The position numbers and the translations under genes were made by a program. The notes under the pieces were generated by a model. That model made no database searches. It was given only the letters and a program-made list of their open reading frames with translations, and had not been told where the DNA came from. This document shows positions 3,126 to 40,841 of a stretch of 64,000 nucleotides of DNA, piece after piece. Within the stretch, counting starts at the first letter, position 1, and each line of letters begins with the position of its first letter. Source of the DNA: an uncultured Eubacteriales bacterium (GTDB taxonomy: Bacteria; Bacillota; Clostridia; Oscillospirales; Oscillospiraceae); contig URPD01000004.1 in NCBI GenBank assembly GCA_900549645.1, forward strand, positions 1,421 to 65,420, written 5' to 3'.

Positions 3126-3704
3126 TCATTTTACCTCAAATTCAGCCGCCAGATAATGAGGAGCGCCGTCTGCTGCTCTCATTTCCAAGACCACGCGGTA
3201 AAGACCGGGAGTCAGGCGAGTTCCGTAGTTGGCGTACTTCTGCACAATACTGCCATCCAAGCCGGAGCCTTCCTCTCCGCCGAGCGCAAATTCGATCGTG
3301 GTAGAAGAAAAGTTATCCTGCACGTAGTTCAGCCGGTGCCACTGACCACCAATATTGTATTCAAGGTATTCAAAGGTGTTCGTCGCTTCGCCGTCTTGGA
3401 CGAAGCGATACACATCCTCGGAATCCGCGGTCACTTTCCATCTGATTGTATATCCTGTGAAAGGCGAAAAAGAAGGCTTTTCAATCGTCAGCTCAAAGCC
3501 GTCGACCTGATTGACCGGATATGTTACCGCGATGTCGCTGAAACTGGGATATTCGGCGGTAGCCTTCAATGTAAGCCATACACTGCCGGCGCAGACCAAT
3601 ATAACGGCGATCAAAATGATAAAACTTCGGAACTTCTTCACAAATGTCTCCCTATTGCGAATAATCCTGTACCTGATTTTATCAGAAGCAAGCCATTTGC
3701 GCAA
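3126..3704 (-). CDS. hypothetical membrane-anchored protein (N-terminal signal-anchor, extracytoplasmic beta-rich domain)
   Basis: 192 aa. A single N-terminal TM (FIILIAVILVCAGSVWL) after a basic cytoplasmic stretch. No recognisable catalytic motifs. Confidence 0.55.
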   Translation of the reverse strand: MRKWLASDKIRYRIIRNRETFVKKFRSFIILIAVILVCAGSVWLTLKATAEYPSFSDIAVTYPVNQVDGFELTIEKPSFSPFTGYTIRWKVTADSEDVYRFVQDGEATNTFEYLEYNIGGQWHRLNYVQDNFSSTTIEFALGGEEGSGLDGSIVQKYANYGTRLTPGLYRVVLEMRAADGAPHYLAAEFEVK

Positions 3705-3740
3705 TCAAATTTGAGAAGCAGTGACGCCGCAATTTCAACT

Positions 3741-3986
3741 CTATTTCATATAATGCTCCTCGACGCAGACGGAGGCGATGGTGGACAGCAGGAGGAGCGC
3801 CGGGGGCGTCTCGCTGAGCGTCAGGGCGGCGTAATATGTATCATAGTGAAGCATGTAGTCGCCGTCGCAGGTGACGAAGAGGATTATCGAAACAGCGAGC
3901 AGCGAGCAGCTTATGCGCAGAGAATTTATAAATATGAACCACGCGGCAGGGTGCATACGGAGCATCCTGCTGATTATTTTTTTCAT
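3741..3986 (-). CDS. small hypothetical membrane protein
   Basis: 81 aa from the ATG at 3986, preceded by RBS GAGGTG with a 6-nt spacer. Hydrophobic segments. Lies upstream of and co-oriented with the 3126..3704 gene. Confidence 0.4.
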   Translation of the reverse strand: MKKIISRMLRMHPAAWFIFINSLRISCSLLAVSIILFVTCDGDYMLHYDTYYAALTLSETPPALLLLSTIASVCVEEHYMK

Positions 3987-4150
3987 ATGCAGCACCTCAA
4001 GGCAATCTTACGCGATGGGGACGCGCGTTTCAAGCTGTATATTTTGCCATTGCCGTGCATCTTAAAAATCAACACATTTTGCGGGATTTGCGCACTAGCT
4101 TATTCCGCCGCGCGAGCCTAAAATTTTATTAAACTCAGGAGGCACTGACA

Positions 4151-4793
4151 ATGAAAAGAACCATGCTTCAAAAATTCGGCATTCTCGGCTTGATAAGCCT
4201 GCTGTCGTACACGACGGCGGTCGTGTTCGCCGCTGGCGTACCCCGGCTACAACTGGCTGGCGCAGGCGGTGAGCGATTTTTCGGCGGACAGCGCGCCGTC
4301 GAGAACGCTGTGGAATCAGCTTTCGGCGCTGTACATGCCGTGCGGCATTGTGTGCTGCACTATGTGCGGACTTGAGGTAAGCGCAAATCCAAACCGGGCA
4401 CTGCGCACGGGAGTATACATTTTCTACGTGATGAACTGGCTGTCGGCGGTGGGCTACGCTATGTTCCCGCTGCCGGAGGCCGGGACGCCGGGCGGCTTTC
4501 AGGGGACGATGCACATGGTCGTGACGGCATTTGTGGTGCTGCTGTCGATAGCGTCGCTGATCCTGATAATCCTCGGAGACAGGGGAGCGCGCTCAGGACT
4601 CGGCGTATGGGCTGCCGCAGCGCTCGCAATGATGCTTCTCGGCGCGATAGGCACCGGAATCGTACCGGGAGAATATTTCGGAATACCGGAACGCTTCAGC
4701 GTATTCGCGGCGACAGGGTTCAACGCGGTGCTGGGCATGTACTTGTTCAACGGCAGGCTTGCAGAGGGGAGGACATCCGAAAAACATGATTGA
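4151..4793 (+). pseudogene. DUF998-family integral membrane protein interrupted by a -1 frameshift near nt 4228
   Basis: N-terminus MKRTMLQKFGILGLISLLSYTTAVVFA is in frame 2. The conserved continuation PLAYPGYNWLAQAVSDFSADSAP... is in frame 0 (listed ORF 4269..4793). Joining requires one extra base around gtgttc^gccgctgg. Confidence 0.6.
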
Positions 4794-5175
4794 GATATGC
4801 GATGACCGCGGCAATAAAAAATACGCCGCGCGGCGTGACGAGGTGCGGCGGCGCGAGCGCGAGGACTCCGCGCGCCGTGCGGTATATTCCTACGGTGAAC
4901 TGTCACTGACAGCGGACACCCATGCCGCGTCTGTGTCGGCGGCGAGCGTATACCTGACGAGGACGGAGTATGCAATACTGAAGCTGCTGATGCAGAATCC
5001 GGAGCAGATAATTTCCCGCGAGGTGATGCTGGAGCGCATCAGCGAGGACACGCCGGACTGCACGGAAGGCTCGATGAAAACGCACGTCAGCCATCTGCGC
5101 GGGAAGCTTAGCCGCGTGGGCGGCCGGGACTTTATAGAGACGGTCCGGGGCGCGGGCTTCAGGTTGGTTTCATAA
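4786..5175 (+). CDS. stand-alone OmpR/PhoB-type winged-helix (trans_reg_C) DNA-binding protein without a receiver domain
   Basis: YSYGELSLTADTHAASV...LTRTEYAILKLLMQNPEQIISREVMLERI...THVSHLRGKL...IETVRGAGFRL matches the trans_reg_C domain. Only ~40 aa precede the domain. The ATG at 4786 overlaps the DUF998 stop. Confidence 0.6.
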   Translation: MIEICDDRGNKKYAARRDEVRRREREDSARRAVYSYGELSLTADTHAASVSAASVYLTRTEYAILKLLMQNPEQIISREVMLERISEDTPDCTEGSMKTHVSHLRGKLSRVGGRDFIETVRGAGFRLVS

Positions 5176-5218
5176 GAAAAGGCATACGTGCTTTATCGCA
5201 CGTATGCCTTTATAAATC

Positions 5219-6820
5219 TCATGCGCCGAGCATTCCGATGATATTGTCCATCGAGAAATTCGACTTGTAATACGAAAGTTCGCCCGCGATAAGCTCGTCG
5301 AGGATGCGCATTCCAAGCAGCTCGACAGGCGCCTTGTCATCGGTGAGGATCTTGCCGCCGCCGGTGTACTCGGTGAGGCGCTGTGCCACGGTAGCCATTA
5401 TCTCGGCATAGCGCGCGTTCGTGAGCTTTGCGCGGCTCTCGTCAAAGGTCTGTACCAGCGTGTCGGCATTGGTGCAGAAGACCTCAGTGTTCGTGTTGCC
5501 GGCGACGTCGGCGATATATGTGTGCTTGAAAACGCTCGCCATCGTGTCGCACAGATACTCGTTGAGGGAGCCGTTTTCGCGCGAGGTCATGTTCAGGTTC
5601 ACGACCATGACGCCTTCGGGCTTGAGATGCCGCGACACCTCAGAGAAAAATTCAACGCTGGAGAGCTGAAAGGGAATGGTGATGTCCTGATATGCGTCGA
5701 CCATTATCACGTCGAACAGCTCGTCCGACGCGCTGAGAAAAGCCCGCCCGTCCGCGACGGCGACTTCGACACTGTCTGGAAGGGAGAAATATTCGTGCGC
5801 GATGTCGGCGATTTTGCCGTCAATCTCCGCGCCCTGAACCGAGATGCCCGGAAAATACCGCGTGCAGTAGCTCGCAAAGGTGCCGGAACCCATGCCGAGG
5901 ATCATCACGCTGCGGCCGCTGCTGTCGGAGCCGTCAAGCCCCGCCATGCACGGCGCGGCGAGCGCATAGTCGTAGTACATGCCGGTAAGCTCCGCATCCT
6001 TGGGCTGCACCGACTGGACGCCGAACAGGACGTTCGTTGCGAGAACGGTCTGATGCGCGTCGTCCTTGACCTGAAGATAGTTATATATCGACTCGTCCTC
6101 AAGCGTCAGATCCTTTTCCCAGAACGCGAAGCTGTAACCCGGAACGCCGAAGCCGAGCGCGCAGATGAGTATGACGGCGATGCAGCCGGCGACGGTCTTC
6201 TTGCGCTCAAATATGAAGTACGCAAGGCCGATGGCGGCCAGCACGCCGGAGAAAATCAGGAACGTGGCCGCGGTGCCGACGGCGGGAATGGTGACAAAGG
6301 TCGGGACAAAGGTGCCGATGATGCTGCCGATAGTGTTGAGCGCGTTGAGCCGCCCGACAGTCTTGCCGGTATCGTCCAGATTATCGACCGTGAACTTCGT
6401 CAGCGACGGGGTAACGGTGCCGAGCAGGACGCAGGGGAAGGCGAATATGAGCAGGCAGGCCGCGAACGCCGCCCAGACGAGGAAATTTTTCGTGATGAAC
6501 GTCGCAAGCAGGAACGATATACCGGCGATCATCCAGCGCCCGACAAAGGGAATGAGCGCTATCCAAATCGCGGCGATGATGACGCGGCGGTACAGCCTGT
6601 CGGGCGATTTGCTCTTGTCCGCCATGCTGCCGCCCCACACGTTGCCGACGGCCATGGCGATCATAATAACGCCGATTATGACTGTCCACACGATCTGGGA
6701 CGAGCTGAAATAGGGCGCCATAAGCCTGCTGGCTCCAAGCTCGACCGCCATCACGGACATGCCGGCGAAAAACTCCGTCAGATACAGAAACCATTTGGTA
6801 TTTATCAGCTTGTTGTTCAT
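5219..6820 (-). CDS. fused polytopic membrane domain / spermidine-synthase-like (polyamine aminopropyltransferase family) protein
   Basis: 533 aa. About 230 aa of N-terminal TM helices, then a SpeE-like Rossmann domain (VMILGMGSGTFASY...EIDGKIADIAHEYF...DVIMVDAYQD). Confidence 0.65.
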   Translation of the reverse strand: MNNKLINTKWFLYLTEFFAGMSVMAVELGASRLMAPYFSSSQIVWTVIIGVIMIAMAVGNVWGGSMADKSKSPDRLYRRVIIAAIWIALIPFVGRWMIAGISFLLATFITKNFLVWAAFAACLLIFAFPCVLLGTVTPSLTKFTVDNLDDTGKTVGRLNALNTIGSIIGTFVPTFVTIPAVGTAATFLIFSGVLAAIGLAYFIFERKKTVAGCIAVILICALGFGVPGYSFAFWEKDLTLEDESIYNYLQVKDDAHQTVLATNVLFGVQSVQPKDAELTGMYYDYALAAPCMAGLDGSDSSGRSVMILGMGSGTFASYCTRYFPGISVQGAEIDGKIADIAHEYFSLPDSVEVAVADGRAFLSASDELFDVIMVDAYQDITIPFQLSSVEFFSEVSRHLKPEGVMVVNLNMTSRENGSLNEYLCDTMASVFKHTYIADVAGNTNTEVFCTNADTLVQTFDESRAKLTNARYAEIMATVAQRLTEYTGGGKILTDDKAPVELLGMRILDELIAGELSYYKSNFSMDNIIGMLGA

Positions 6821-18577: not shown

Positions 18578-19432
18578 TTACATCTTGCCTATCACGACGC
18601 GCTCGATATTCAGCGTGTCGAGTCTGGAGCCGACGGCGCGGAAGCCGGCGGAGCTTAGCATTTCCTTGACCGTTGCGGCCTGACCCTCGCCGACCTCAAA
18701 CAGCAGGAAGCCGCCGGGGCGGAGCAGACTCTTCCAATACTTGATTATCGCCTTATAGAAGCGATACCCGTCCTCGCCGCCGTCGAGCGCCCATATCGGC
18801 TCATAGTCGCGCACGGAGGCGTCGAGCGTCATTATCTCGGCGCTGGCAATGTACGGGGGATTGGAGACGATCATGTCAAACTGGCCGATGCTCATCGGAG
18901 GAGAGGAGGTAGCGTCTGCCTGAATACAGATGGCGCGGGAGCCGAGACGGTTCGACGCAAAGTTCTCGCGCGCAATCTCAAGGGCGTTGGCGCTGATATC
19001 GACGGCGACAAGCTTCGTCGCGGGCAGCTCGTGGCCGAGCGCGCAGGCAATGCAGCCGCTGCCGCAGCAGAGGTCGAGTATCCTTGCGTCCATCTTGCGG
19101 CCGAGCAGCAGCTCTTTCGCGGTCGTCACCAGCAGCTCCGTATCCATACGGGGGATGAGCACGTCGGGCGTGACCTTCATCGGCAGACCGTAGAACTCCC
19201 ACGCACCCGTGATGTACGCGACCGGCTCACCGGCGAGGCGGCGGCGCGTAAGCTCCTGAACCTCTGCGTCGATGGCAGCGGTGGTGTATAGATTGATGTC
19301 GCGCAGAAGCTCGGCGACGGACTTCCCGGCGGCAGTGGCCACCAGCAGCCGCGCTTCAAGGGTGTAGCCCTCGATGCCGCTTGCGCGCAGGGCGTTGCGC
19401 GTTTCAAGATAAATGTCGTTGTAAGTTTTCAT
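18578..19432 (-). CDS. prmC: release factor glutamine N5-methyltransferase PrmC/HemK
   Basis: NPPY motif and SAM-binding LDLCCGSG. Confidence 0.9.
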   Translation of the reverse strand: MKTYNDIYLETRNALRASGIEGYTLEARLLVATAAGKSVAELLRDINLYTTAAIDAEVQELTRRRLAGEPVAYITGAWEFYGLPMKVTPDVLIPRMDTELLVTTAKELLLGRKMDARILDLCCGSGCIACALGHELPATKLVAVDISANALEIARENFASNRLGSRAICIQADATSSPPMSIGQFDMIVSNPPYIASAEIMTLDASVRDYEPIWALDGGEDGYRFYKAIIKYWKSLLRPGGFLLFEVGEGQAATVKEMLSSAGFRAVGSRLDTLNIERVVIGKM

Positions 19433-19453
19433 CCGGCGATCCTCAATTCTGAT

Positions 19454-20395
19454 TTACCAAGCGTCGCTGCCTTTTTCTTCGGGGATGACAAGCTCCATCG
19501 CGCGAATCGCGCACTCGATCATGCTGTCGTCCGGCTCGTTCGTGGTCATGTGCTGGAGCCATTTGCCCGGCGCGGAGAGCGCGGCGGACAGCCAGTTGTC
19601 ATGCCGGCCGCACCAGCGGTTTATCTCGTAGCTTATGCCGACGACCAGCGGCAGGAGCAGCAGATGGCAGCCCATGCGGGCGAAGCTGTTGGTCAGCGTG
19701 ACGACGGAGTTAACAAGGATGCTGACGACAACGACGACGAGCAGGAAGCTCGTTCCGCAGCGGGGGTGGAAACGGGATTCCGTGCGCACGTTTTCAACCG
19801 TCAAAGGCTTGCCGTGCTCATAGCAGAAGATGGTCTTGTGCTCGGCGCCGTGATAGGAAAACAGGCGCTTCACATCGCTCACGCAGGAGCACAGGCGCAT
19901 GTAGCACAGCAGGATGACGATCTTTACCACGCCCTCGGAGAGGTTCCGGACGACGAGATTCTGCGTCAGCGGCTTTATGAAGCCGACTATCAGCGTCGGG
20001 AGAAAGATGAACAGAAACAGCGCCAGCGCGATGCCGAGGACGACCGCCGTGCCGATGACAATCTTCGGCGCCTTCTCGGCCTCGAAGTGCTTTTCTATCC
20101 ACTGGTCGAGCTTGTCCGGCTCCTGATCCTCAACGGGCACAAGCTCCGCCGAGTAGGTCAGCGCCTGCATACCCTTGACCATGGAATCCAGAAACGTCGC
20201 ACAGCCGCGGATGAGCGGCCAGCCGAGTATGGGGTATCTGTCCCTGATGAATTTCAGCTCCTCGACCTTTTCGACAAGGCCGTCCGCCGTGCGGCATACG
20301 ATGGCCTGCTTTTTCGGCCCGCGCATGAGGATACCTTCGATAAGAGCCTGTCCGCCGATGGATGTGCGGAAGGAGCAGTCTTTGTTTTTTGCCAT
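19454..20395 (-). CDS. DUF1385 (YqhQ-like) membrane protein
   Basis: 313 aa with conserved DUF1385 N-terminus GGQALIEGILMRGP. Typical neighbour of prmC in Firmicutes. Confidence 0.75.
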   Translation of the reverse strand: MAKNKDCSFRTSIGGQALIEGILMRGPKKQAIVCRTADGLVEKVEELKFIRDRYPILGWPLIRGCATFLDSMVKGMQALTYSAELVPVEDQEPDKLDQWIEKHFEAEKAPKIVIGTAVVLGIALALFLFIFLPTLIVGFIKPLTQNLVVRNLSEGVVKIVILLCYMRLCSCVSDVKRLFSYHGAEHKTIFCYEHGKPLTVENVRTESRFHPRCGTSFLLVVVVVSILVNSVVTLTNSFARMGCHLLLLPLVVGISYEINRWCGRHDNWLSAALSAPGKWLQHMTTNEPDDSMIECAIRAMELVIPEEKGSDAW

Positions 20396-22129: not shown

Positions 22130-22317
22130 ATATGTGATTTCCCCCTGTTAAGGCATTTTGTAAGCATTATATATTATGACAAGTAATTATATCACAGCAT
22201 TTACAAAAATGGTAGTCATAGTTGCAAAAAAATATCATAAAAATATGCGCGTTATTACAGAACGTATGCATAGCGATGACATGTTATGTAACCCGGTGAG
22301 AGCACTTTTACTTGGCC

Positions 22318-22346
22318 TTGATATTTTGGTTCAACGCTGGTAAAAT
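22318..22346 (+). promoter_or_regulatory. promoter TTGATA-17-TAAAAT immediately before the GTPase-NYN gene (predicted near-leaderless transcript)
   Basis: -35 at 22318-22323, -10 at 22341-22346. The ATG at 22354 lies only 7 nt past the -10 and has no SD (atctcctATG). Confidence 0.5.
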
Positions 22347-22353
22347 ATCTCCT

Positions 22354-24945
22354 ATGAAGAAAAATGTTGTTATAGGTATCTTGGCTCATGTGGACGCGGG
22401 GAAAACGACGCTGTCCGAGGCCATGCTGTACCTTTCGGGAAAAATCAAAAAGCTTGGCCGCGTTGACCACCGCGACTCGTATCTTGACACACATTCGATC
22501 GAGCGCTCCCGCGGCATAACCATCTTCTCAAAGCAGGCGGTGATCGACCTGCCGCAGAGCAGCGTTACGCTTCTCGACACGCCGGGGCACGTCGACTTCG
22601 TCTCCGAGACGGAGCGCAGTCTGCGTGTACTGGATTACGCGGTTCTGGTCATCAGCGGGACGGACGGAGTGCAGGCGCACACGGAGACGCTGTGGCAGCT
22701 GCTGCGGCGCTACGGGATACCGACCTTCATATTCGTGACCAAAATGGACTTGCCCGTCCGCGACAAGGCCGCGTTGATGGCCGATTTGCAGCGGCGGCTC
22801 GACGCGGAGTGCGTGGACTTCGGGGAAAACGCCGCCGCGCTCAATGAGCGGCTTGCCATGTGCGGCGAGGCCGCGATGGACGAATATCTGAGCTGCGGGG
22901 AGCTGAGCCGCGATACGATCGCGGAGCTGATAAAGACCCGGCGCGTGTTCCCGTGCTTCTTCGGCTCCGGTCTTCGCACCGAGGGCGTCGAAGAATTCAT
23001 GCAGGCGATCGACGAGTACGCGATACCGGCAGCAGCGGGGGACGGGTTCTCCGCGCGGGTGTATAAAATAGCGCGCGACGCGCAGGGCAAGCGCCTGAGC
23101 TTTCTCCGCGTGAACGGCGGGGAGCTGTCCGTGCGGCAGCTTATCCGCTACGCGGGCGAGGACGGCGCGGAGCATGAGGAAAAAATCAGCCAGCTTCGCA
23201 TATATTCCGGCATAAAGTACGAGGCCGTCGATACGGTCAAGCCCGGCCAGATCTGCGCCGCACTCGGCCTGAGCGAGACTTTCCACGGTCAGGGACTGGG
23301 CGCGGAAGCGGACGTCTCGGTGGAGCCGATGCTGGAGCCGGTACTGAGTTACAGCCTGCTGCTGCCGCCGACGGAGGATCCGCGCGTAATGCTGCCGAAG
23401 CTGATGCAGCTTCAGGAGGAGGATCCGCAGCTGCACATCCGTTGGGATGAGCGCGGCAGGGCGATACGCGTGGAGCTTATGGGCAAGGTGCAGGCGGAGG
23501 TATTCCGCGCGCTTGTCAAGGAGCGCTTCGACGTCGATATCGCGCTTGACGCGGGGCGCATCATGTATAAGGAGACCATTGCCGACACCGTGGAGGGCGT
23601 AGGCCATTTTGAGCCTCTGCGCCATTACGCGGAGGTGCACCTGATAATGGAACCGATGCCGCGCGGAAGCGGCATAGTCGTGGACAGCGTCTGCCCGGAA
23701 GACGGGCTTGACCGCAACTGGCAGCGGCTGATACTCGGCCATGTACTCGAAAAGCAGCATCTAGGCGTGCTGACAGGTTCGCCGCTGACGGATGTGAAAA
23801 TAACGCTTGCCGCCGGGCGGGCGCACCTGAAGCACACCGAGGGCGGGGACTTCCGTCAGGCGACCTACCGCGCGATACGGCAGGGGCTTATGCAGGCAAA
23901 ATCTGTGCTGCTTGAGCCGTGGTACGCGTTTTCGATAGAGCTGCCGCCGGAGCTGATAGGGCGCGCGATAAGCGATGTGCGCCAGATGTCCGGCAGCTTC
24001 ACGGGGCCTGACGACGCGGGCGGAATGCTCCGCATCGAGGGCGGTGCGCCGGTGTCGGAGATGAACGGCTACGCAAGCGAAGTGGCGGCATATTCTGGCG
24101 GACGCAGTAAATTTTCCTGCCGCGTGGAGGGCTACCGCCAATGCCATAATGAAAAAGACGTGGTTGTGGAGATCAACTACGACGCAGAAAGCGACGTGGA
24201 GAACACCGCGGATTCCGTGTTCTGCGCCCACGGCGGCGGCTTTAACGTCCGCTGGGACAAGGTTCCGGAATACATGCATCTTGAAAGCTGCCTGAAAAAG
24301 CCGGAGACTACCGCGCCTGTCAGGCCGTACCGCAGTCTCAGCATCGACGAACGCGAGCTTGAAGCGATAATGGAGCGCGAGTTCGGCCCCATAAAGCGCC
24401 CGGAATACCGCGCGCCGACGGTGAACTCAGCGCCTGTGCGGCCGATCGCGCCGCCGAAGAAGCAATATATAATAGTAGACGGCTATAACCTCATCTTCGC
24501 GTCGCAGGAGCTTTCGGCACTTGCGTGGGAAAAGCTCGACCTTGCGCGCGGGCGATTGATGGACATGCTGTCAAACTACTGCGGCTTTACGAAACGTGAG
24601 CTGGTGCTGGTGTTTGACGGCTTCCGTACCCCCGGCAACCCCGGCTCGCGCGAGGAGTACCACAATATACACGTCGCCTTTACCAAGGACGGCGAGACGG
24701 CGGACGCGTATATCGAGCGCATCGCGGATAACATCGGAAAGAATTATGACGTCCGCGTCGTCACGAACGATAATCTTATCAGGCTCTCGGCACTGCGTTC
24801 CGGCGTCCTGCGCACCTCGTCGGACGAGTTCGCACTGGAGGTGCGGGACGTGCTGGAGCAGATAGACGCGCTTCTGAAAAAGACGAACGACGGCGCGCAC
24901 AAATACAGATTGGAACTGGACAGAACTGAAAATGGAGAAAAATGA
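22354..24945 (+). CDS. EF-G/TetM-like translational GTPase (domains G-II-III-IV-V) fused to a C-terminal Rae1/YacP-type NYN endoribonuclease domain
   Basis: N-terminus VVIGILAHVDAGKTTLSEAMLY...DTPGHVDF...VTKMDL aligns along its length with TetM/TetO/EF-G through about aa 640. After a ~90-aa Pro-rich linker, the C-terminal ~150 aa (YIIVDGYNLIFAS...LVLVFDGF...IHVAFTKDGETADAYIERIA...VRVVTNDNLIRLSALRSG) matches B. subtilis Rae1/YacP motif for motif, including the acidic residues. Total 864 aa from the ATG at 22354. Confidence 0.8.
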   Translation: MKKNVVIGILAHVDAGKTTLSEAMLYLSGKIKKLGRVDHRDSYLDTHSIERSRGITIFSKQAVIDLPQSSVTLLDTPGHVDFVSETERSLRVLDYAVLVISGTDGVQAHTETLWQLLRRYGIPTFIFVTKMDLPVRDKAALMADLQRRLDAECVDFGENAAALNERLAMCGEAAMDEYLSCGELSRDTIAELIKTRRVFPCFFGSGLRTEGVEEFMQAIDEYAIPAAAGDGFSARVYKIARDAQGKRLSFLRVNGGELSVRQLIRYAGEDGAEHEEKISQLRIYSGIKYEAVDTVKPGQICAALGLSETFHGQGLGAEADVSVEPMLEPVLSYSLLLPPTEDPRVMLPKLMQLQEEDPQLHIRWDERGRAIRVELMGKVQAEVFRALVKERFDVDIALDAGRIMYKETIADTVEGVGHFEPLRHYAEVHLIMEPMPRGSGIVVDSVCPEDGLDRNWQRLILGHVLEKQHLGVLTGSPLTDVKITLAAGRAHLKHTEGGDFRQATYRAIRQGLMQAKSVLLEPWYAFSIELPPELIGRAISDVRQMSGSFTGPDDAGGMLRIEGGAPVSEMNGYASEVAAYSGGRSKFSCRVEGYRQCHNEKDVVVEINYDAESDVENTADSVFCAHGGGFNVRWDKVPEYMHLESCLKKPETTAPVRPYRSLSIDERELEAIMEREFGPIKRPEYRAPTVNSAPVRPIAPPKKQYIIVDGYNLIFASQELSALAWEKLDLARGRLMDMLSNYCGFTKRELVLVFDGFRTPGNPGSREEYHNIHVAFTKDGETADAYIERIADNIGKNYDVRVVTNDNLIRLSALRSGVLRTSSDEFALEVRDVLEQIDALLKKTNDGAHKYRLELDRTENGEK

Positions 24946-25675
24946 ACTTCTGCGCCGCATGGAGGATCTGTGCGAGCGCGCCGAGCGCAGTGGGACGGTC
25001 TGCTCCAGCGGGTATCTCAGCCCAGCAGAGCGGTATCAGACCGAGAAATGGGCGAAGCAGCGCGGCTGCACCGTGGTGTTTTCGGGCGGCGGAGCCGACT
25101 GCGAGCGGACGGCGGCGTTCTTCCTGCCGGAATATATGAGCGAGGAATACTTTGACCCGTCGGAGCACTTCGCGGCGATAAAGCTTACCGCGCATTTCGG
25201 TACGCCGGGGCACCGGGACTATATGGGCGCGGTGCTGGGCATGGGCGTCGGCCGCGAGTGGGTAGGCGATATCCGCGTCATGGGCGACACGGCGTATATC
25301 TTCTGTCTGCCGAGCGTGCACCGGCACCTGCTGAGTATCGACAAGGTAGGCCGATGCGGGGTCACGGCGGAGAATATCGCGCCGGGGGACGTTCCGCAGG
25401 CGAAGCGCGAGGTGAAGGAAAAGAGCTTTTCCGTCATGTCGATGCGGCTTGACGCGGTGACGGCGGGCATGTTTGACCTCAGCCGCACCGAGGCCGCGAA
25501 GGAGATACGCCTCGGCAATGTCAGTCTCAACTATGAACCGACCGAGAAGCCCGACGCGCAGATATCGGCGGGGGATATAATTTCCCTGCGCGGCGCGGGC
25601 AAGGGCAGCGTCACCGGTACCGGCGGCACCTCACGCAAAGGACGGCTTTTCGTCTACGCGGAAATACTGAAGTGA
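24932..25675 (+). CDS. ylmH: YlmH-like S4-domain RNA-binding protein (RqcP paralogue family)
   Basis: 247 aa. Clear similarity to B. subtilis YlmH across N-domain, central domain and C-terminal S4 domain (FFLPEY..., SMRLDAVTAGMFDLSRTEAAKEI..GNVSLN...ISAGDIISLRGAGKG). Start overlaps the GTPase-NYN stop. Confidence 0.75.
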   Translation: MEKNELLRRMEDLCERAERSGTVCSSGYLSPAERYQTEKWAKQRGCTVVFSGGGADCERTAAFFLPEYMSEEYFDPSEHFAAIKLTAHFGTPGHRDYMGAVLGMGVGREWVGDIRVMGDTAYIFCLPSVHRHLLSIDKVGRCGVTAENIAPGDVPQAKREVKEKSFSVMSMRLDAVTAGMFDLSRTEAAKEIRLGNVSLNYEPTEKPDAQISAGDIISLRGAGKGSVTGTGGTSRKGRLFVYAEILK

Positions 25676-25722: not shown

Positions 25723-26940
25723 ATGAAAGCCTACGAAAGATTTATTACCTACGTCAAGACCCACACCGCAAGCTCCGAGACCTCGGAGAGCGTGCCGAGC
25801 AGCGACTGCCAGTTTACGCTGTGCCATATGCTTGCCGACGAGATGCGCTCCATCGGGCTGGAGGGCGTATATGAGGACGAGCACGCCTATGTTTACGGCT
25901 TCATCCCCGCGAGCGAGGGCTATGAGGACAAGCCCTGCATCGGCTTCATCGCCCATCTTGACACGATACCCGATTTCCCCGGCGAGAACGTTCAGCCGCA
26001 GCTCATCGAAAATTATGACGGCGGCGACGTCGTCCTCGGCACGAGCGGGCGCAGCCTGACGGCGGAGAAGTTCCCGCATCTGGCTACCCTCAAGGGTCAA
26101 ACCCTTATCACGACCGACGGCACGACCGTGCTCGGCGCAGACGATAAGGCGGGCATCGCCGCGATAATGACCGCCGCGGAGCGCATTATAAAAGAGAAGC
26201 GCCCGCATGGCCGCGTCGCCGTGTGCTTCACGCCCGACGAGGAGATCGGCCACGGCGCGTCGCTGCTCGATCTTGAGCGGCTGGGCGCGGACTTTGCCTA
26301 CACCGTTGACGGCGAGGAGCTGAGCGAGATAAACTACGAGACCTTCAACGCCGCGTCCGCGAAGTGGGAGGTCAACGGCTTCAACATCCATCCGGGCAGC
26401 GCGAAGAACATGATGATAAACGCGAGCCTTGTCGCTATGGAGATAAACTCAATGCTCCCCTCCGGCGACACCCCGGCGCACACCGAGGGCTACGAGGGCT
26501 TCTTCCACCTGACCGATATGAGCGGCACTGTTGAAAAAGCGATGCTGAGCTACATCATCCGCGACCATAACGCCGCTTCCTTCGACCAGCGCATAAAGAC
26601 GATGGAGCACATCGAAAAGCTCATAAACGAGAAGTACGGCGAGGGCACCGCGAAGCTGACTGTGCGCCAGCAGTACCGGAACATGCGGGAGCTTATCGGC
26701 GAGCACATGGAGATAGTCGAGCTTGCGGAGCGCGCACTGCGCCGCGAGGGCATAGAGCCTGTCACCGCGCCCGTCCGCGGCGGCACCGACGGCGCACAGC
26801 TCACCTTCCGCGGCCTGCTCTGCCCGAACATCGGCACCGGCGGCTACTCCTGCCACGGCCCCTATGAGCACATCACCGCCGAGCACCTTGAGACCTCGAC
26901 GAACATCGTCATGAACATAATCGACGAGAATCTGAAATAA
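25723..26940 (+). CDS. pepT: peptidase T (tripeptide aminopeptidase, M20B)
   Basis: 405 aa with M20 metal-binding motifs (HLDT, GADDKAG, DEE, H near C-terminus). Confidence 0.85.
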   Translation: MKAYERFITYVKTHTASSETSESVPSSDCQFTLCHMLADEMRSIGLEGVYEDEHAYVYGFIPASEGYEDKPCIGFIAHLDTIPDFPGENVQPQLIENYDGGDVVLGTSGRSLTAEKFPHLATLKGQTLITTDGTTVLGADDKAGIAAIMTAAERIIKEKRPHGRVAVCFTPDEEIGHGASLLDLERLGADFAYTVDGEELSEINYETFNAASAKWEVNGFNIHPGSAKNMMINASLVAMEINSMLPSGDTPAHTEGYEGFFHLTDMSGTVEKAMLSYIIRDHNAASFDQRIKTMEHIEKLINEKYGEGTAKLTVRQQYRNMRELIGEHMEIVELAERALRREGIEPVTAPVRGGTDGAQLTFRGLLCPNIGTGGYSCHGPYEHITAEHLETSTNIVMNIIDENLK

Positions 26941-26986
26941 AAAAACGCAAATTCAAAAAATCTCACGCTTATAAGGAGAGATGAGG

Positions 26987-28267
26987 ATGAAGAGCAGGCT
27001 TGGAGCGAGAAACTGGATCACGCTGATACTCATCGGCCTTTTCGGGCAGTTCGCGTGGACGATAGAGAACATGTATTTCAACGTGTTCCTCTATAACACT
27101 ATCAGCACCGACCCCGGCTACATCGCCGCGATGGTAGGCTGGTCTGCCGCCGCCGCGACGGTGACGACGCTTCTCATGGGCGCGCTGTCAGACCGCGTCG
27201 GCAAGCGCAAGGCGTTCATCTGCGCGGGCTACATACTCTGGGGGCTCTCGACCGCCGCCTTCGGCTACATTACGCCTGAAAACGCGGGGCGGCTTTTCCC
27301 TGCGGCGAACGCGTCGGCGGCCGCGGCGGTGATGGTGGTCGTGCTCGACTGCGTGATGACCTTCTTCGGCAGCACCGCGAACGACGCGGCCTTCAACGCC
27401 TACGTCACGGATATCACCGACAGCGACAACCGCGGCCGGGCGGAGAGTGTGCTGGCGATACTGCCGCTCATCTCCATGCTGATAATCTTCGGCGGCTTCG
27501 ACGGACTGACCCAGCAGGGGAGATGGCGCGAGTTTTTCAACATCTTCGGCGTCTCGGTATCCGTCGTCGGGCTTGTGTCGCTCGTACTGGTCAAGGATTC
27601 GCCGCGGCTTACGCCGAGGCGGGACAGCTATTTCAAAAACCTGCTCTACGGCCTGCGCCCCGGCGTCGTGCGTGAGAATCTGCAGCTGTACCTGTCGTTC
27701 GCGGCGTTCAGCGTGTTCTCAATCGCCGTGCAGGTGTTCTTCCCGTACCTGATAATCTATATTCAGAACTATCTCGGCATCAAGGATTACGCGATAGTCC
27801 TCGGTGTGGTGCTGATATTTGCAAGCGTCGTGAGCGTCGTCTCCGGCAGATTCATCGACCGGGTCGGCAAAATGCGTTTCACCGTGCCCGCGGCGGCGAT
27901 CATGCTCATCGGCCTTGCGGCGATGTATTTCGTGCGCGGCAACGCCGGGGTTATGATCGCGGGCAGCGTGATGATGAGCGGGTATATGATGATGTCCGCC
28001 GCCCTCGGCGCGAATATCCGCGACTGGACGCCCAAGGACAAGGCCGGGCATTTTCAGGGCATCCGCATGATATTCGCAGTGCTGCTGCCGATGATAATCG
28101 GCCCCGTAATAGGCGCGGAGGTCATCCGCAATTCCGACAGCACGTATATGGAGCTGGGGCAGCTCAAGACCGTGCCGACTCCGGGGATATTCCTCGCGGC
28201 GGCGGCAGTCCTGATGCTGACGGCGATACCCGTGCTGATGCTGAGAAAAAGCGAAAAAAAGAGATAA
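26987..28267 (+). CDS. MFS transporter
   Basis: About 426 aa, 12 TM. RBS AAGGAGAG is positioned for the ATG at 26987. Confidence 0.7.
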   Translation: MKSRLGARNWITLILIGLFGQFAWTIENMYFNVFLYNTISTDPGYIAAMVGWSAAAATVTTLLMGALSDRVGKRKAFICAGYILWGLSTAAFGYITPENAGRLFPAANASAAAAVMVVVLDCVMTFFGSTANDAAFNAYVTDITDSDNRGRAESVLAILPLISMLIIFGGFDGLTQQGRWREFFNIFGVSVSVVGLVSLVLVKDSPRLTPRRDSYFKNLLYGLRPGVVRENLQLYLSFAAFSVFSIAVQVFFPYLIIYIQNYLGIKDYAIVLGVVLIFASVVSVVSGRFIDRVGKMRFTVPAAAIMLIGLAAMYFVRGNAGVMIAGSVMMSGYMMMSAALGANIRDWTPKDKAGHFQGIRMIFAVLLPMIIGPVIGAEVIRNSDSTYMELGQLKTVPTPGIFLAAAAVLMLTAIPVLMLRKSEKKR

Positions 28268-28277
28268 GGCGAACGCG

Positions 28278-29354
28278 ATGAAAGATGCAATATTCCATTT
28301 CCCGACGGACGGAACTCCGGCGGAGTGCGAACAGATAAAATGCGGCCATATAAACCAGACCTATCTGATAACGACCGATACGGGGGCGAAATATGTCCTG
28401 CAATGGGTCAATCAGTACGTTTTCCCGAACGTTGACGCGATAATGGGCAACATGTCCGCGATAAGCGCGTATCTGCGCGGGCAGAACGAGCGCATGTCCA
28501 TGATAAGCTACATCGACACGCGCGACGGCAAAAACTATTATGACGACGGAGAGGGCGGCTGCTGGCGGGCTTACAGGTTCGTCGATAACAGCATATGCCT
28601 CCAGAGCGCGGAGACCCTGTCCGATTTCTATGAGAGTGCGCGGGCGTTCGGGCATTTTCAGTACACACTGCGCGGTTTCCCGGCGCAGACGCTTCAGGAG
28701 ACGATAGTGGATTTCCACAATACGCCCGTGAGATATGAGCAGCTCCGCGCCGCAATCAGCGCCGACCCGCTTGGCCGCGCGGCGTCCGTGCAGCAGGAGA
28801 TCGACTTCATATTCGAACGCGAGCAGCGCGCGGGTACGCTCCAGCGTATGCGCGACGCGGGGGAGCTGCCCGTCCGCGTCACGCACAACGACACGAAGAT
28901 AAATAACGTCCTGCTCGACGCGGACACGCGCCGTGCGCTGTGCGTCATTGACCTCGACACCGTCATGCCGGGGCTGTCGGCCTACGATTTCGGCGACGCG
29001 ATCCGCTTCGGCGCGTCCACCGCGGCGGAGGATGAGCGGGAGCTGGAGCGTGTACGGCTCGATCTGAACCTGTACCGTGTGTTCACGCGCGGCTTTGCTG
29101 AAGCCTGCCCCAGCCTGACGCGGGCGGAGCGCGATGTGCTGCCGCTTGGCGCGTTTGTGATGACGCTTGAGTGCGGCCTGAGGTTCCTCGCCGACTACAT
29201 AAACGGCGATAAGTATTTCTCCATAGACCGCGAGAGCCACAATCTTGACCGTGCGCGCACACAGCTCAAGCTGATAAGCGAGATGGAATCGCATTGGGAC
29301 GAGCTGATGCAAATAAACAGCGAAGAAGCCTATTTTAGACCTGATCTCGGATGA
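28278..29354 (+). CDS. aminoglycoside-phosphotransferase-fold kinase, N-acetylhexosamine 1-kinase (NahK)-like
   Basis: 358 aa. Catalytic loop HNDTKINNVLLD and DFGD-like motif IDLDTV. Overall APH/NahK-like. Confidence 0.6.
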   Translation: MKDAIFHFPTDGTPAECEQIKCGHINQTYLITTDTGAKYVLQWVNQYVFPNVDAIMGNMSAISAYLRGQNERMSMISYIDTRDGKNYYDDGEGGCWRAYRFVDNSICLQSAETLSDFYESARAFGHFQYTLRGFPAQTLQETIVDFHNTPVRYEQLRAAISADPLGRAASVQQEIDFIFEREQRAGTLQRMRDAGELPVRVTHNDTKINNVLLDADTRRALCVIDLDTVMPGLSAYDFGDAIRFGASTAAEDERELERVRLDLNLYRVFTRGFAEACPSLTRAERDVLPLGAFVMTLECGLRFLADYINGDKYFSIDRESHNLDRARTQLKLISEMESHWDELMQINSEEAYFRPDLG

Positions 29355-29567
29355 GATTAGGTCTTTTTCATTAAATATTTTGTACTTCACATGCAAACGG
29401 CGCAAATAATCGCTAGATGTTTTGGGAACAATGACGTATTTGCACTATAATTTCCTTGCCAAAATAGTATAAACGTTGTAAAATACCATCAAGCGAATTT
29501 AGGCGAGTTTTATAACGAACGAGCCGTCAAAATATATCTTTATATATCTTTCAGGAGGAAAAGAAAA

Positions 29568-39011: not shown

Positions 39012-40841
39012 TTACTGTGCGGCTTCGGAGGGCGCGGTCTGGTTTTTCTCGTAGGTCAGTGCGAAGAGCGCCGCCGAGAGGATCAGCACGAAGAGCGCCG
39101 AATACAGCAGCCCGCGGCCAAGCCCCAGACTTATGGCCTCCGCCAGTATCGCGCCCACGGCGCAGGCAGCGGCGATGAACCACATCGGGTATTTTATCTT
39201 CAGCTTGTCAAAAGCCTTCAGCAGCGCTGCCGCACCGGCAGCGGCGGAGGCGAGCATCAACAGGTTCATCAGAACGCGGAGAACGAAGCGGACAATGTAT
39301 CCGACGTGCATCGAGCGCGCCGCGCTGTTTGCCGCGGTCAGCAGCTCCTCACCGTCTATCACGTTTTCAGAAATGCTGTCATACGCCAGCAGCGCCTGAC
39401 GGGCGGATTTGTATTCGTCCTGAAGCTGTTCGTACTCGCCGACGGAGGTCTGCATACCGCTTATCTTGTCAAACGCGGCGAGAAGCTCATCCTTCTCGTC
39501 CTTCAGCTTCTGCTCCGTCTCGCTCAAGCCCGCGCGTATTCCGCCGAGCTGAGCCATAGCGGCGTCAAGCTGGGAATCGCCGTCGTCAAGCTGCGCCTTG
39601 ACAGCGTCCAGTTGCTCGCGTCCGGCGTCTATCTGCGCCTTGGCTTCGAGCAGGGCAGGTTCGTTTTTCTTCAGCTCCGCCTCGCCGGCTTCCAGCTGTG
39701 CCTTGACCTGCGGCAGCATCTTTTCGGACTCCGCCAGCTGCTTTTCGCCGTCGTCAAGCTGCTGCTTCAGCGCCTGAAGCTGTGCTTCGCCCTCGTTCAG
39801 CTGCGCTTCCACAGCTTCCAGCTGCGCAGGCGCGTCGGCTATCATCTGCTTTGTGGCCTCAAGCTGTGCCGCGCCCTCGGCGTAGCGCGACTCGGCGTCC
39901 GCAAGCTGGGCTTCCGCCTCGGAAAGCTGTGCGCCCGCCGCATCAAGCTCGGCGCGTTTCGCGCTCCAATCGCTGCGGATGTCCTCAAAGCTGCGGCCGA
40001 ACATCGCCTGAATGGTCTTGTCGGCGATGGCATATATCAGCTCGCCGCCGACGCTGTCCTCACGTACCTTATCAATAATGGCCTGAGCCTGACTGTATAT
40101 CGCGTCGATCGCGTTGTACGCGGCCAGAGATGCCTCGTATTTGCGCTTGGCCTCGCTCAGCTGAGTCTGCGCCTCGTCAAGCTGAGTGCGCGCGGCGGCC
40201 AGCTCCGCTTCATACTGCGGCAGCGCCGCCTCGGCGTCCGCAAGCTGCTGGCGGCGGCTTGCAAGCTCCGCACGACCCTGCTCAAGCTGCTGCATCCCGG
40301 CGTCGTACTGGGCGCGCCCCTCGGCTATGGCAGCCTTGCCCTGCTCTATCTGGGCGACGCCGTCGTTATATTCCTGCCAGCCGGCGTCTATCTGCGCCTT
40401 GGCGGCGAGATACTTATTATAGCCGACGTTGAATTCCGCCTCCATCGCGTCGAACTGCTCGCGCGCGGCGTTATACTGCTTCCAGCCGTCTTCAAGAGTG
40501 CTTGCGGCGGAGTCGATACCGCCCGTGCCCATCTGAAGCCCGGCGTTCGTGGCGGTGTATTCGGTCAACTCCTCGCGGTGATGGGAGGAGTCCTCGTCAT
40601 ACTGCCCCTTCTCGGCCTTCAGTTCCGCGGCGGTCTTGTCATATTCGGCCTTGCCGCCGTTGAGCTGCGCGTCAAGCGCTTCGGCCTCGGCTATCCTGTC
40701 GCGGAGAGTCTTGTAATCACTGCAATCCTGCGCAAAATCCTTCCCTGCGCTGACGAAGCCCGCGACGCCGCTTATAAGCGTCACAAGGCACATAACGGCG
40801 AGCACGGCGGATATAACTCTGCTTAGAGCCTGATGTTTCAA
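39012..40841 (-). CDS. membrane-anchored coiled-coil protein with ~11-residue tandem repeats (YhgE/Pip-like topology)
   Basis: 609 aa. N-terminal TM, about 450 aa of predicted coiled coil with repeats (AQLNEGEAQL, QQLDDGEKQL, AQLEAGEAEL, AQIDAGREQL, AQLDDGDSQL), and C-terminal 2-3 TM helices. Matching nucleotide repeats occur at 39585/39745/40175. Confidence 0.6.
   Translation of the reverse strand: MKHQALSRVISAVLAVMCLVTLISGVAGFVSAGKDFAQDCSDYKTLRDRIAEAEALDAQLNGGKAEYDKTAAELKAEKGQYDEDSSHHREELTEYTATNAGLQMGTGGIDSAASTLEDGWKQYNAAREQFDAMEAEFNVGYNKYLAAKAQIDAGWQEYNDGVAQIEQGKAAIAEGRAQYDAGMQQLEQGRAELASRRQQLADAEAALPQYEAELAAARTQLDEAQTQLSEAKRKYEASLAAYNAIDAIYSQAQAIIDKVREDSVGGELIYAIADKTIQAMFGRSFEDIRSDWSAKRAELDAAGAQLSEAEAQLADAESRYAEGAAQLEATKQMIADAPAQLEAVEAQLNEGEAQLQALKQQLDDGEKQLAESEKMLPQVKAQLEAGEAELKKNEPALLEAKAQIDAGREQLDAVKAQLDDGDSQLDAAMAQLGGIRAGLSETEQKLKDEKDELLAAFDKISGMQTSVGEYEQLQDEYKSARQALLAYDSISENVIDGEELLTAANSAARSMHVGYIVRFVLRVLMNLLMLASAAAGAAALLKAFDKLKIKYPMWFIAAACAVGAILAEAISLGLGRGLLYSALFVLILSAALFALTYEKNQTAPSEAAQ

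Follow-up and report, generated by a model that had tools for sequence, protein, structure and literature searches.

A translational GTPase fused to a Rae1-type nuclease

The window analyzed in this work, a 64,000-nucleotide stretch of an uncultured Eubacteriales bacterium of the Oscillospiraceae (contig URPD01000004.1, positions 1,421 to 65,420), carries on its forward strand a gene (22354..24945) whose 863-aa product combines a translational GTPase, a C-terminal extension, a tether and an NYN_YacP endoribonuclease domain. It is followed by a ylmH homologue (24932..25675, forward strand, 247 aa) which starts with an ATG and shares the final 14 nt of the fusion gene. A sequence-only reading of this locus had described the fusion as an 864-aa TetM/EF-G-type factor carrying a Rae1/YacP nuclease and coupled to ylmH; the length has to be corrected by one residue. 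Because the GTPase is joined to a Rae1 nuclease and its gene overlaps ylmH, the cutting of mRNA on stuck ribosomes, and not tetracycline resistance, is its probable function.

The order of domains anticipated from the sequence, a five-domain GTPase and then a Rae1-type NYN domain, was confirmed by Pfam, which recognizes successively GTP_EFTU, EF-G_D2, EFG_III, EFG_IV, EFG_C and NYN_YacP (all features of the gene are on the forward strand). The G domain (aa 3-223, 22360..23022; GTP_EFTU, E 4e-49) displays the motifs G1 AHVDAGKTT, G2 RGITI, G3 DTPGH, which includes the catalytic His79, and G4 TKMD. Conservation was evaluated on the 218 of the 231 collected family members that reach at least 800 aa and were considered as full-length. 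G1, G2 and G3 are near-invariant in this set and G4 reads [N/T/S]KxD, with K130 and D132 invariant; D14, G16, K17, D75, P77 and G78 are likewise kept in all 218 proteins and H79 in 216 of them. Domains II and III (aa 232-398, 23047..23547) match EF-G_D2 (aa 232-310) and EFG_III (aa 328-398) with scores that are each barely over the gathering score, and both have predicted local confidence (pLDDT) values above 90 in the AlphaFold2 model. They are followed by domain IV (aa 401-516, 23554..23901; EFG_IV, E 3e-16) and domain V (aa 518-601, 23905..24156; EFG_C, E 9e-17). The model, built from 76 family sequences, has a mean pLDDT of 89.4 and an EF-G-like body. When the whole model was used for a fold search, the top solved structures were EF-G chains (E 4.5e-53); this search retrieved EF-G-type factors only and added nothing on the C-terminal extension. 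With G1 to G4, a catalytic histidine after DxxG and domains II to V in the EF-G order, the protein belongs to the EF2/EF-G branch of the translational GTPase superfamily.

The nuclease domain (aa 704-853, 24463..24912) is detected by PF05991 at aa 706-853 (E 1.4e-37, 129.6 bits for a cut-off of 24.6, profile positions 1-151 of 166). It aligns with residues 4-143 of Rae1/YacP from Bacillus subtilis (5MQ8; E 4e-15, 33% identity over about 128 residues), and D709, D755, D784 and D806 face D7, D53, D81 and D104 of Rae1, so that the motif-for-motif correspondence noticed initially holds. AlphaFold2 predicts a well-folded NYN domain with a long helix at its end. The Rae1 catalytic mutant D7N D81N is inactive (PMC10351889), and the four aspartates of the fusion are kept in 215 to 217 of the 218 full-length relatives. 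Since the catalytic residues of both the GTPase and the NYN domain are near-invariant in this set, sequence conservation indicates that both enzymatic halves are under selection.

Rae1 (5MQ8/5MQ9) thus shares with the C-terminal part of the fusion its family, PF05991, all four active-site aspartates and a presumed activity as an RNase on ribosome-bound RNA. It differs from it in several respects: (i) Rae1 is a free single-domain protein of 170 aa, whereas the NYN domain of the fusion is the C-terminal module of an 863-aa GTPase, behind a tether and with a dedicated docking module attached, (ii) a counterpart of the Rae1 C-terminal tail (aa 144-170) could not be detected in the fusion and (iii) rae1 belongs to a cysS-mrnC-rlmB-rae1-sigH cluster, whereas the fusion gene stands in an unrelated context. 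No gene of the mrnC-rlmB-rae1-sigH cluster was found among the Pfam-scanned open reading frames (ORFs) of the window, and the window harbors no second copy of an NYN gene or of ylmH.

Between the EF-G-like body and the nuclease, alignment and AlphaFold2 delineate a family-specific extension (aa 597-645, 24142..24288) made of a helix, a beta-hairpin and a second helix (pLDDT 87-96). The similarity to TetM, initially thought to reach about aa 640, ends near aa 595-600, and this 48-aa extension is a separate module, missing in Tet(M) and Tet(O). Its residues C597 (201/218), C624 (201/218), H626 (183/218) and H642 (207/218) are widely conserved, and it may be a small zinc-binding domain. The proline-rich tether that follows (about 58 aa, aa 646-703, 24289..24462; pLDDT 40-66) is predicted to be disordered, as expected from the sequence-only reading, but it is not uniformly flexible: a short conserved helix (aa 666-677) separates two segments with pLDDT values below 50 (653-665 and 681-697). 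Across the family, the tether length varies from 52 to 191 aa (median 78). Conservation delimits in it the motif ELExIxERxxGPIK (here ELExIFERTYGPIK; aa 666-681, 24349-24396), with E668 in 197 and I672 in 198 of the 218 proteins. This helix motif is confined to nuclease-bearing members and may be a docking motif.

Affiliation of the GTPase half

The best NCBIfam model for the protein is tet_protect (NF012153), with a score (398.3 bits) far under its cut-off of 775; the TetM/W/O/S model NF033148 gives 256.5 bits for a cut-off of 1100. The EF-G models also remain below their cut-offs (TIGR00484, 280.6 bits versus 659; NF009381, 314 bits versus 583). The identities are similarly low with Tet(M) (29.4-29.6%), TetB(P) (31.5%), Tet(O) (27.9%) and a plasmid-borne EF-G (27.6%).

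In Tet(M) and Tet(O) structures, loop III of domain IV contacts the tetracycline site. Domain IV of the fusion carries two family-specific tip motifs, EGVGHFEPLRHYAEVH (aa 414-429, 23593-23640) and AGRAHLKHTEGGDFRQA (aa 487-503, 23812-23862), that are 90-100% conserved among the 218 full-length members. In the alignment with Tet(M) and Tet(O), YYSPVSTPADFR of the Tet proteins is substituted in domain IV of the fusion, and the Tet(M) segment GLYYSPVSTPADFR is replaced by AGRAHLKHTEGGDFRQA. The position of the YSPVS loop, the drug-displacing element of Tet(M) (PMC4342817), is occupied by RAHLKHTEGG, for which the family consensus is AHxKHTEGGDFR. Within this region, His491 aligns with the histidine found at the tip of EF-G domain IV, and a histidine is present there in 201 of the 218 relatives. 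The comparison of the domain-IV loop with that of TetM therefore turned out negative and, together with an identity of about 29% and a score below the cut-off, contradicts the TetM-specific part of the sequence-only reading. Such a conserved and family-specific tip implies, as far as can be judged from residue conservation, a defined ligand in the decoding region. The two near-invariant motifs GHFEPLRHY and AHxKHTEGGDFR are rich in His, Lys and Glu, unlike those of EF-G or Tet(M), and this constellation of residues almost resembles an active site.

The fusion shares with EF-G and its paralogues (EF-G2, mitochondrial EF-G2/RRF2) the overall fold, the G motifs, the catalytic histidine and the position of the tip histidine His491. 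However, its identity to EF-G is only about 26-28%, its G' region is shorter, with breaks of the alignment in this region, its domain-IV loop I is four residues shorter and devoid of the GG tip, and it possesses the family-specific tip motifs and C-terminal additions. It is collinear with Tet(M) and Tet(O) over aa 3-595, having the same five-domain EF-G-like organization and the short G' region; unlike them, it lacks both the YSPVS loop and the Tet(M) C-terminal segment and has instead the 48-aa module, the tether and the nuclease. Furthermore, its gene is chromosomal, widespread and located off mobile elements. The scores below the cut-offs, the identities of about 28-30%, the distinct tip motifs and the extra module indicate that the GTPase half constitutes its own EF-G/Tet-like subfamily, named "translation factor GTPase family protein" by PGAP.

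Much closer relatives were found among proteins devoid of the NYN domain, for example those encoded by Ligilactobacillus salivarius megaplasmids (46% identity over aa 3-644). These "translation factor GTPase family" proteins have in common with the fusion the domain-IV tip motifs and the 48-aa extension, and end directly after this extension (about 640-670 aa), without tether or nuclease. The comparison designates them as the true parent subfamily of the GTPase part and indicates that this subfamily gained the tether and the Rae1-type domain in Clostridia. In L. salivarius pHN3 (3400-5917), the gene of one such relative (644 aa) is divergent from a paralogue of rpsN (S14) and from a gene encoding a small "putative metal homeostasis protein". 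These neighbors hint that the ribosomal context of the parent subfamily is related to zinc.

Distribution of the fusion and previous reports

The survey of genomes for the fusion revealed that it is widespread. A pattern scan of one genome per species identified at least 598 confirmed relatives in Oscillospiraceae, Ruminococcaceae, Acutalibacteraceae, Lachnospiraceae, Monoglobales and others. The genera concerned include Faecalibacterium, Agathobacter, Blautia, Dorea, Coprococcus, Flavonifractor, Intestinimonas and Oscillibacter. The best 80 of these relatives, taken as related loci for the analysis of gene neighborhoods, all match through the NYN domain. When a protein library clustered at 50% identity was searched, the 150 top representatives had, with few exceptions, lengths of 830-960 aa and matches extending to about residue 840. 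Two longer representatives, P0200 (1069 aa) and P0208 (1156 aa), have N-terminal extensions of 200-300 residues before the GTPase. Independent assemblies obtained from different samples contain the exact YlmH protein, preceded by an 863-aa fusion gene and surrounded by the same neighbors; in the metagenome-assembled genome GCA_934597265.1 from NCBI, the same fusion ORF has been called from an upstream TTG, giving a product of 877 aa.

Fusions of TetM-like and NYN_YacP domains in Clostridia were previously reported, as unexplained, by Atkinson in 2015 (PMC4342817) and by Matelska et al. in 2017 (PMC5499597). The sequence-only reading, which did not recognize this architecture as a characterized system, was therefore right with regard to experimental characterization but overlooked these two bioinformatic surveys. 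Neither the fusion nor its link with ylmH is mentioned in the searched passages of PMC12407103, PMC13622287 and PMC11317155. What is new here is (i) the evidence that the GTPase is not of the Tet(M) type, (ii) the anatomy of the protein, with its tip motifs, its additional module and the conserved helix in its leash, (iii) the conservation of both active sites and (iv) the likely clade-specific translational coupling to ylmH.

Association with ylmH

The identification of the downstream gene as a ylmH overlapping the stop of the fusion gene was corroborated. Its product matches PF17774 (YlmH_RBD; 32.6 bits for a cut-off of 23), has an S4 score (20.4 bits) slightly under the cut-off of 22.8 and aligns with residues 36-250 of B. 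subtilis YlmH (8S1P; E 4.7e-22, 214 residues), the S4 part included. It thus has in common with B. subtilis YlmH (8S1P/8S1U) both the RNA-binding domain of YlmH and an S4 domain at the C-terminus, and relatives also carry the YlmH N-terminal family PF21278. Unlike the B. subtilis gene, it is located outside of a ylm/dcw/sepF/divIVA context, in agreement with the initial observation: no Pfam match to SepF, DivIVA, YGGT or FtsZ families was obtained for the 54 ORFs scanned, out of 56 candidate ORFs of at least 100 aa in the 64-kb window. According to PMC11317155, the context of ylmH varies between organisms.

A search with the YlmH of the window (tblastn) located ylmH directly downstream of the fusion gene, on the same strand, in 18 of the 80 related loci and nowhere else. 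At least 78 of these 80 loci have enough downstream sequence, and the 18 linked loci include one (L065) with a partial ylmH at a contig end. Clustering of three genes on each side of the 80 loci revealed ylmH as the only recurrent neighbor; a response regulator gene and pepT recur only in the closest relatives, and the association with HTH genes described by Matelska et al. was not seen in these 80 loci. In a neighbor-joining tree of the GTPase part, the loci linked to ylmH are located in one region with a few unlinked loci interspersed, and the Lachnospiraceae, Faecalibacterium, Faecousia and Oscillibacter-type branches are devoid of this link.

Since the ATG of ylmH lies 14 nt within the end of the fusion gene, the two genes are likely translationally coupled. 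This 14-nt overlap recurs in a relative whose YlmH has 67% identity with that of the window, and the pair persists in loci whose fusion protein has about 53-67% identity with that of the window and whose other flanks differ. From these comparisons, the coupling is judged to be real in the linked clade, where selection probably maintains it.

A lineage-specific accident of gene order, without functional coupling, would leave a fusion that still works on ribosomes, beside a ylmH of no relevance to it. This interpretation accommodates the lack of ylmH within 6 kb in 60 of the 78 loci with sufficient downstream sequence, the location of the linked loci in one region of the tree, which is consistent with a single inherited rearrangement, and the varied contexts of ylmH (PMC11317155). 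Nonetheless, we consider it as somewhat unlikely: the pair and its overlap are kept while other neighbors change, no other gene recurs as a neighbor, and both partners have a ribosome-rescue pedigree.

Start codon, promoter and genomic neighborhood

The fusion gene is contained in a longer ORF that could start at a TTG (22312..24945, a single open frame on the forward strand). The ATG at 22354 is nevertheless the best predicted start, since homologues begin at the equivalent position, which puts the G1 motif at residue 11, and since the -10 element of a probable sigma-70-type promoter falls within the longer TTG-started ORF. This promoter (TTGATA-17-TGgTAAAAT, 22318..22346, forward strand), proposed from consensus matching (10 of 12 positions plus an extended -10), is the top match of the region, and its -10 element ends 7 nt upstream of the ATG. 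Four related loci (L001, L002, L005 and L006) show the same promoter geometry, with a non-conserved spacer of 6-7 nt and no Shine-Dalgarno sequence. In these closest relatives, the promoter elements are kept and the spacer to the ATG is not; in more distant relatives, the gene is preceded by a short leader of the usual kind, with GGAGG. A promoter abutting the ATG and the lack of a Shine-Dalgarno sequence suggest that the mRNA of the fusion-ylmH operon is leaderless. An Rfam search of the window found tRNAs only and no known regulatory RNA; a tet(M)-attenuation-style leader or a riboswitch upstream of the gene was rejected on this basis and because the promoter directly abuts the ATG.

Downstream of ylmH, the forward strand carries, according to Pfam, pepT (25723-26940), an MFS transporter gene (26981-28267) and the gene of an APH-family kinase (28278-29354). 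Since the first strong intrinsic-terminator-like hairpin found by the terminator scan lies at 29337..29364 (forward strand; a 12-bp stem followed by a T run), the transcription unit of the fusion gene and ylmH may extend through these three genes. Upstream, on the other strand, Pfam identified genes for a MiaB-like enzyme, recX, recA, prmC, a DUF1385 gene and a two-component system. The release-factor methyltransferase gene prmC and the DUF1385 gene (18578-20395, reverse strand), about 2 kb upstream, are syntenic with the fusion-ylmH pair in relatives. This synteny is possibly coincidental, though Rae1 cleavage has been linked to slow termination at stop codons (PMC12407103). No mobile-element or resistance gene was detected by Pfam in the neighborhood, and the hypothesis of an anti-phage defense gene was discarded, PADLOC giving no match for the fusion protein or YlmH.

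Two genes located elsewhere in the window also deserve mention. One (57905-59167, forward strand) encodes a protein with both hexokinase domains, PF00349 and PF03727; this two-domain type is best known in eukaryotes and is uncommon in bacteria. The other (39012-40841, reverse strand) encodes a 609-aa protein with matches only below threshold, to coiled-coil or filament families (crescentin rod, intermediate filament), and may be a cytoskeleton-like coiled-coil protein.

Proposed function of the fusion protein

The site that EF-G and Tet(M) occupy on the ribosome, the factor site, is known in atomic detail, and their domain IV extends to the A site of the 30S subunit. By analogy, we propose that the fusion protein uses its GTPase to dock on ribosomes that have stalled or collided and thus brings the Rae1-type nuclease, held on its tether, to the mRNA, thereby feeding rescue pathways, a proposal that we regard as having about an even chance of being right. 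The GTPase body would occupy the factor site of a 70S ribosome and place domain IV at or close to the 30S A site. As domain IV would then require an A site that is free or blocked before translocation, the factor would select stalled or collided ribosomes. The tethered NYN domain would cut nearby mRNA, on the entry side or between two collided ribosomes, and GTP hydrolysis through His79 would release or reset the factor. The truncated mRNA would turn the stall into a non-stop complex cleared by tmRNA; alternatively, the subunits would be split and RqcH, together with YlmH, would act on the 50S-peptidyl-tRNA. Since ylmH is likely translationally coupled to the fusion gene, the analysis suggests that, in the ylmH-linked lineage, the fusion and YlmH act in one rescue route.

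The known properties of both partners are relevant here. [quoted passage not shown] It is also reported that Rae1 generates tmRNA substrates after collisions and that Rae1-dependent rescue responds to erythromycin-induced collisions (PMC13622287, a 2026 preprint), and that YlmH acts in ribosome-associated quality control on 50S-peptidyl-tRNA, alongside RqcH (PMC11317155, 2024). The premise of the sequence-only reading that Rae1 cleaves in the A site is consequently outdated, since the authors who put it forward have revised it (PMC12407103).

The proposed logic, a module recognizing stalls or collisions combined with an mRNA endonuclease or a rescue factor, is analogous to that of the collision- and stall-linked mRNA nucleases SmrB in Escherichia coli and Cue2/NONU-1 in eukaryotes, of the splitting factor MutS2 and of the A-site rescue factors delivered by a GTPase, Pelota/Dom34-Hbs1. 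The product of such systems feeds tmRNA or ribosome-associated quality control, as proposed for the fusion. This likeness is a functional analogy only. The nuclease folds are unrelated (SMR in SmrB/Cue2-type systems, NYN in the fusion). Furthermore, we know of no system of the SmrB, Cue2, MutS2 or Pelota type that uses an EF-G-fold GTPase covalently joined to a nuclease.

Several points weigh against the proposed docking and cleavage. First, the exit-side cut made by Rae1 (PMC12407103) is far from the factor site of the same ribosome. The model therefore needs a long tether, a collided neighbor or cleavage at another place than the one cut by Rae1. In a collided pair, the Rae1 site would face the entry side of the trailing ribosome, whose factor site would be nearby; as a conjecture, binding to the trailing ribosome would thus reconcile the geometry. 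Second, a profile of the tether gave no match with Rae1 (shuffled controls reach 7.7 bits), which led us to reject the idea that the tether helix is a displaced copy of the Rae1 C-terminal tail. Third, adjacency to ylmH concerns 19 of the 81 loci when that of the window is counted, all in one part of the tree, so that most fusion genes function with no ylmH beside them and the coupling is not a feature of the whole family. Lastly, no experimental study of the fusion family was found in the searchable literature.

A broader version of the rescue proposal considers the fusion as the Rae1 of the cell in most gut Clostridia. It would have replaced the free enzyme and would sense translocation-blocked collided ribosomes by mimicry of EF-G, with the GTPase on the factor site of the trailing ribosome; GTP hydrolysis would reset the factor or help splitting, and tmRNA or RqcH-YlmH would take over the products, ylmH being co-translated with the fusion gene in the present lineage according to this version. 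The gene contexts examined bear on the replacement. Whereas the control species B. subtilis and Clostridioides difficile have the canonical cysS-mrnC-rlmB-rae1-sigH cluster, the fusion-bearing Monoglobus pectinilyticus has a phosphoesterase gene after rlmB and no adjacent rae1. In Vescimonas, rlmB is not followed by an NYN gene. The rpmG-nusG cluster of Agathobacter and Monoglobus lacks rlmB-sigH in front of it and is therefore uninformative in this respect. The sole NYN_YacP match in the Monoglobus and Agathobacter records is the fusion, these records being chromosome pieces filed as plasmids and possibly incomplete. The remaining observations are no more than suggestive of a replacement of stand-alone Rae1 by the fusion. 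As a whole, we consider this broader version as tentative and rather unlikely.

The nuclease could instead target rRNA. The GTPase would inspect ribosomes or late assembly intermediates, and the NYN domain would trim or cut 16S or 23S rRNA, the purpose being maturation or the destruction of defective or idle ribosomes, with YlmH as a partner in assembly or quality control. It is known that EF-G and Tet(M) complexes bring domain IV close to 16S rRNA elements, and domain IV with the extension would set the start of the tether beside them. In addition, stand-alone yacP/rae1 shares its operon with mrnC and rlmB, two genes of rRNA maturation (PMC5499597), the testing of an rRNA RNase activity was already proposed by Atkinson in 2015 (PMC4342817), and a possible role of YlmH in ribosome biogenesis is discussed in PMC11317155. 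However, experiments have defined no substrates of the Rae1 family other than mRNAs on translating ribosomes. Moreover, a tether that is long and variable in length (52-191 aa) is better suited to a distant and flexible target, such as mRNA, than to an rRNA site at a fixed position, and no rRNA-processing gene is present in the neighborhood. An rRNA target is therefore clearly unlikely, and mRNA on stalled or collided ribosomes remains the target that we favor.

A role as a Tet(M)-type ribosomal protection protein, or more generally as an antibiotic-dislodging factor, with the nuclease as passenger or auxiliary, appears highly improbable. Tet(M)-type proteins are typically encoded by mobile elements, whereas the fusion is specified by a core chromosomal gene present in hundreds of species, with variable housekeeping neighbors and with neither a transposon context nor a leader like that of tet(M). 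It is true that tet_protect is the top NCBIfam model, an involvement of an RNase in resistance was raised as a possibility by Atkinson in 2015 (PMC4342817), and the response of Rae1-dependent rescue to erythromycin-induced collisions (PMC13622287) could be read in the same direction. Nevertheless, the scores of the Tet models are about half of the cut-off or less, the fusion is no closer to Tet(M) than to EF-G, the YSPVS loop is missing, the position of the EF-G tip histidine is mostly kept, and the C-terminal segment of Tet(M) is replaced by a different module. The score, the loop motif, the C-terminus and the genomic context thus led us to discard the interpretation as a true Tet(M)-type resistance protein. 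PGAP labels a 933-aa homologue of the fusion in Agathobacter rectalis (locus L084, 4983-7784) as a [quoted passage not shown], which on sequence grounds is probably an over-annotation. A BrnT/CopG toxin-antitoxin pair is located immediately upstream of this homologue.

Finally, the chimeric join of a tetM-like and a yacP gene that the sequence-only reading had envisaged, or any other assembly or annotation artefact, can be dismissed, as the same ORF and neighbors occur in independent assemblies, full-length members are found family-wide, with all of the best 80 loci matching through the NYN domain, and GC content and GC3 are uniform across the GTPase/NYN junction.

Taken as a whole, the resistance labels given to fusion genes in some database entries are unsupported by this work and would inflate resistome counts. 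Since the fusion joins the nuclease to a module whose ribosomal site is known, it could address how Rae1 recognizes stalled or collided ribosomes, and the ylmH operon offers a genetic handle on mRNA cleavage versus 50S-based quality control. If the replacement of Rae1 and the mimicry of EF-G were true, the fusion would be the first translational GTPase delivering a nuclease. With relatives in at least 598 species, including dominant genera of the human gut (Faecalibacterium, Agathobacter, Blautia, Dorea, Coprococcus, Flavonifractor and Oscillibacter, among others), it may be the main collision-rescue nuclease for a large part of the gut microbiome.

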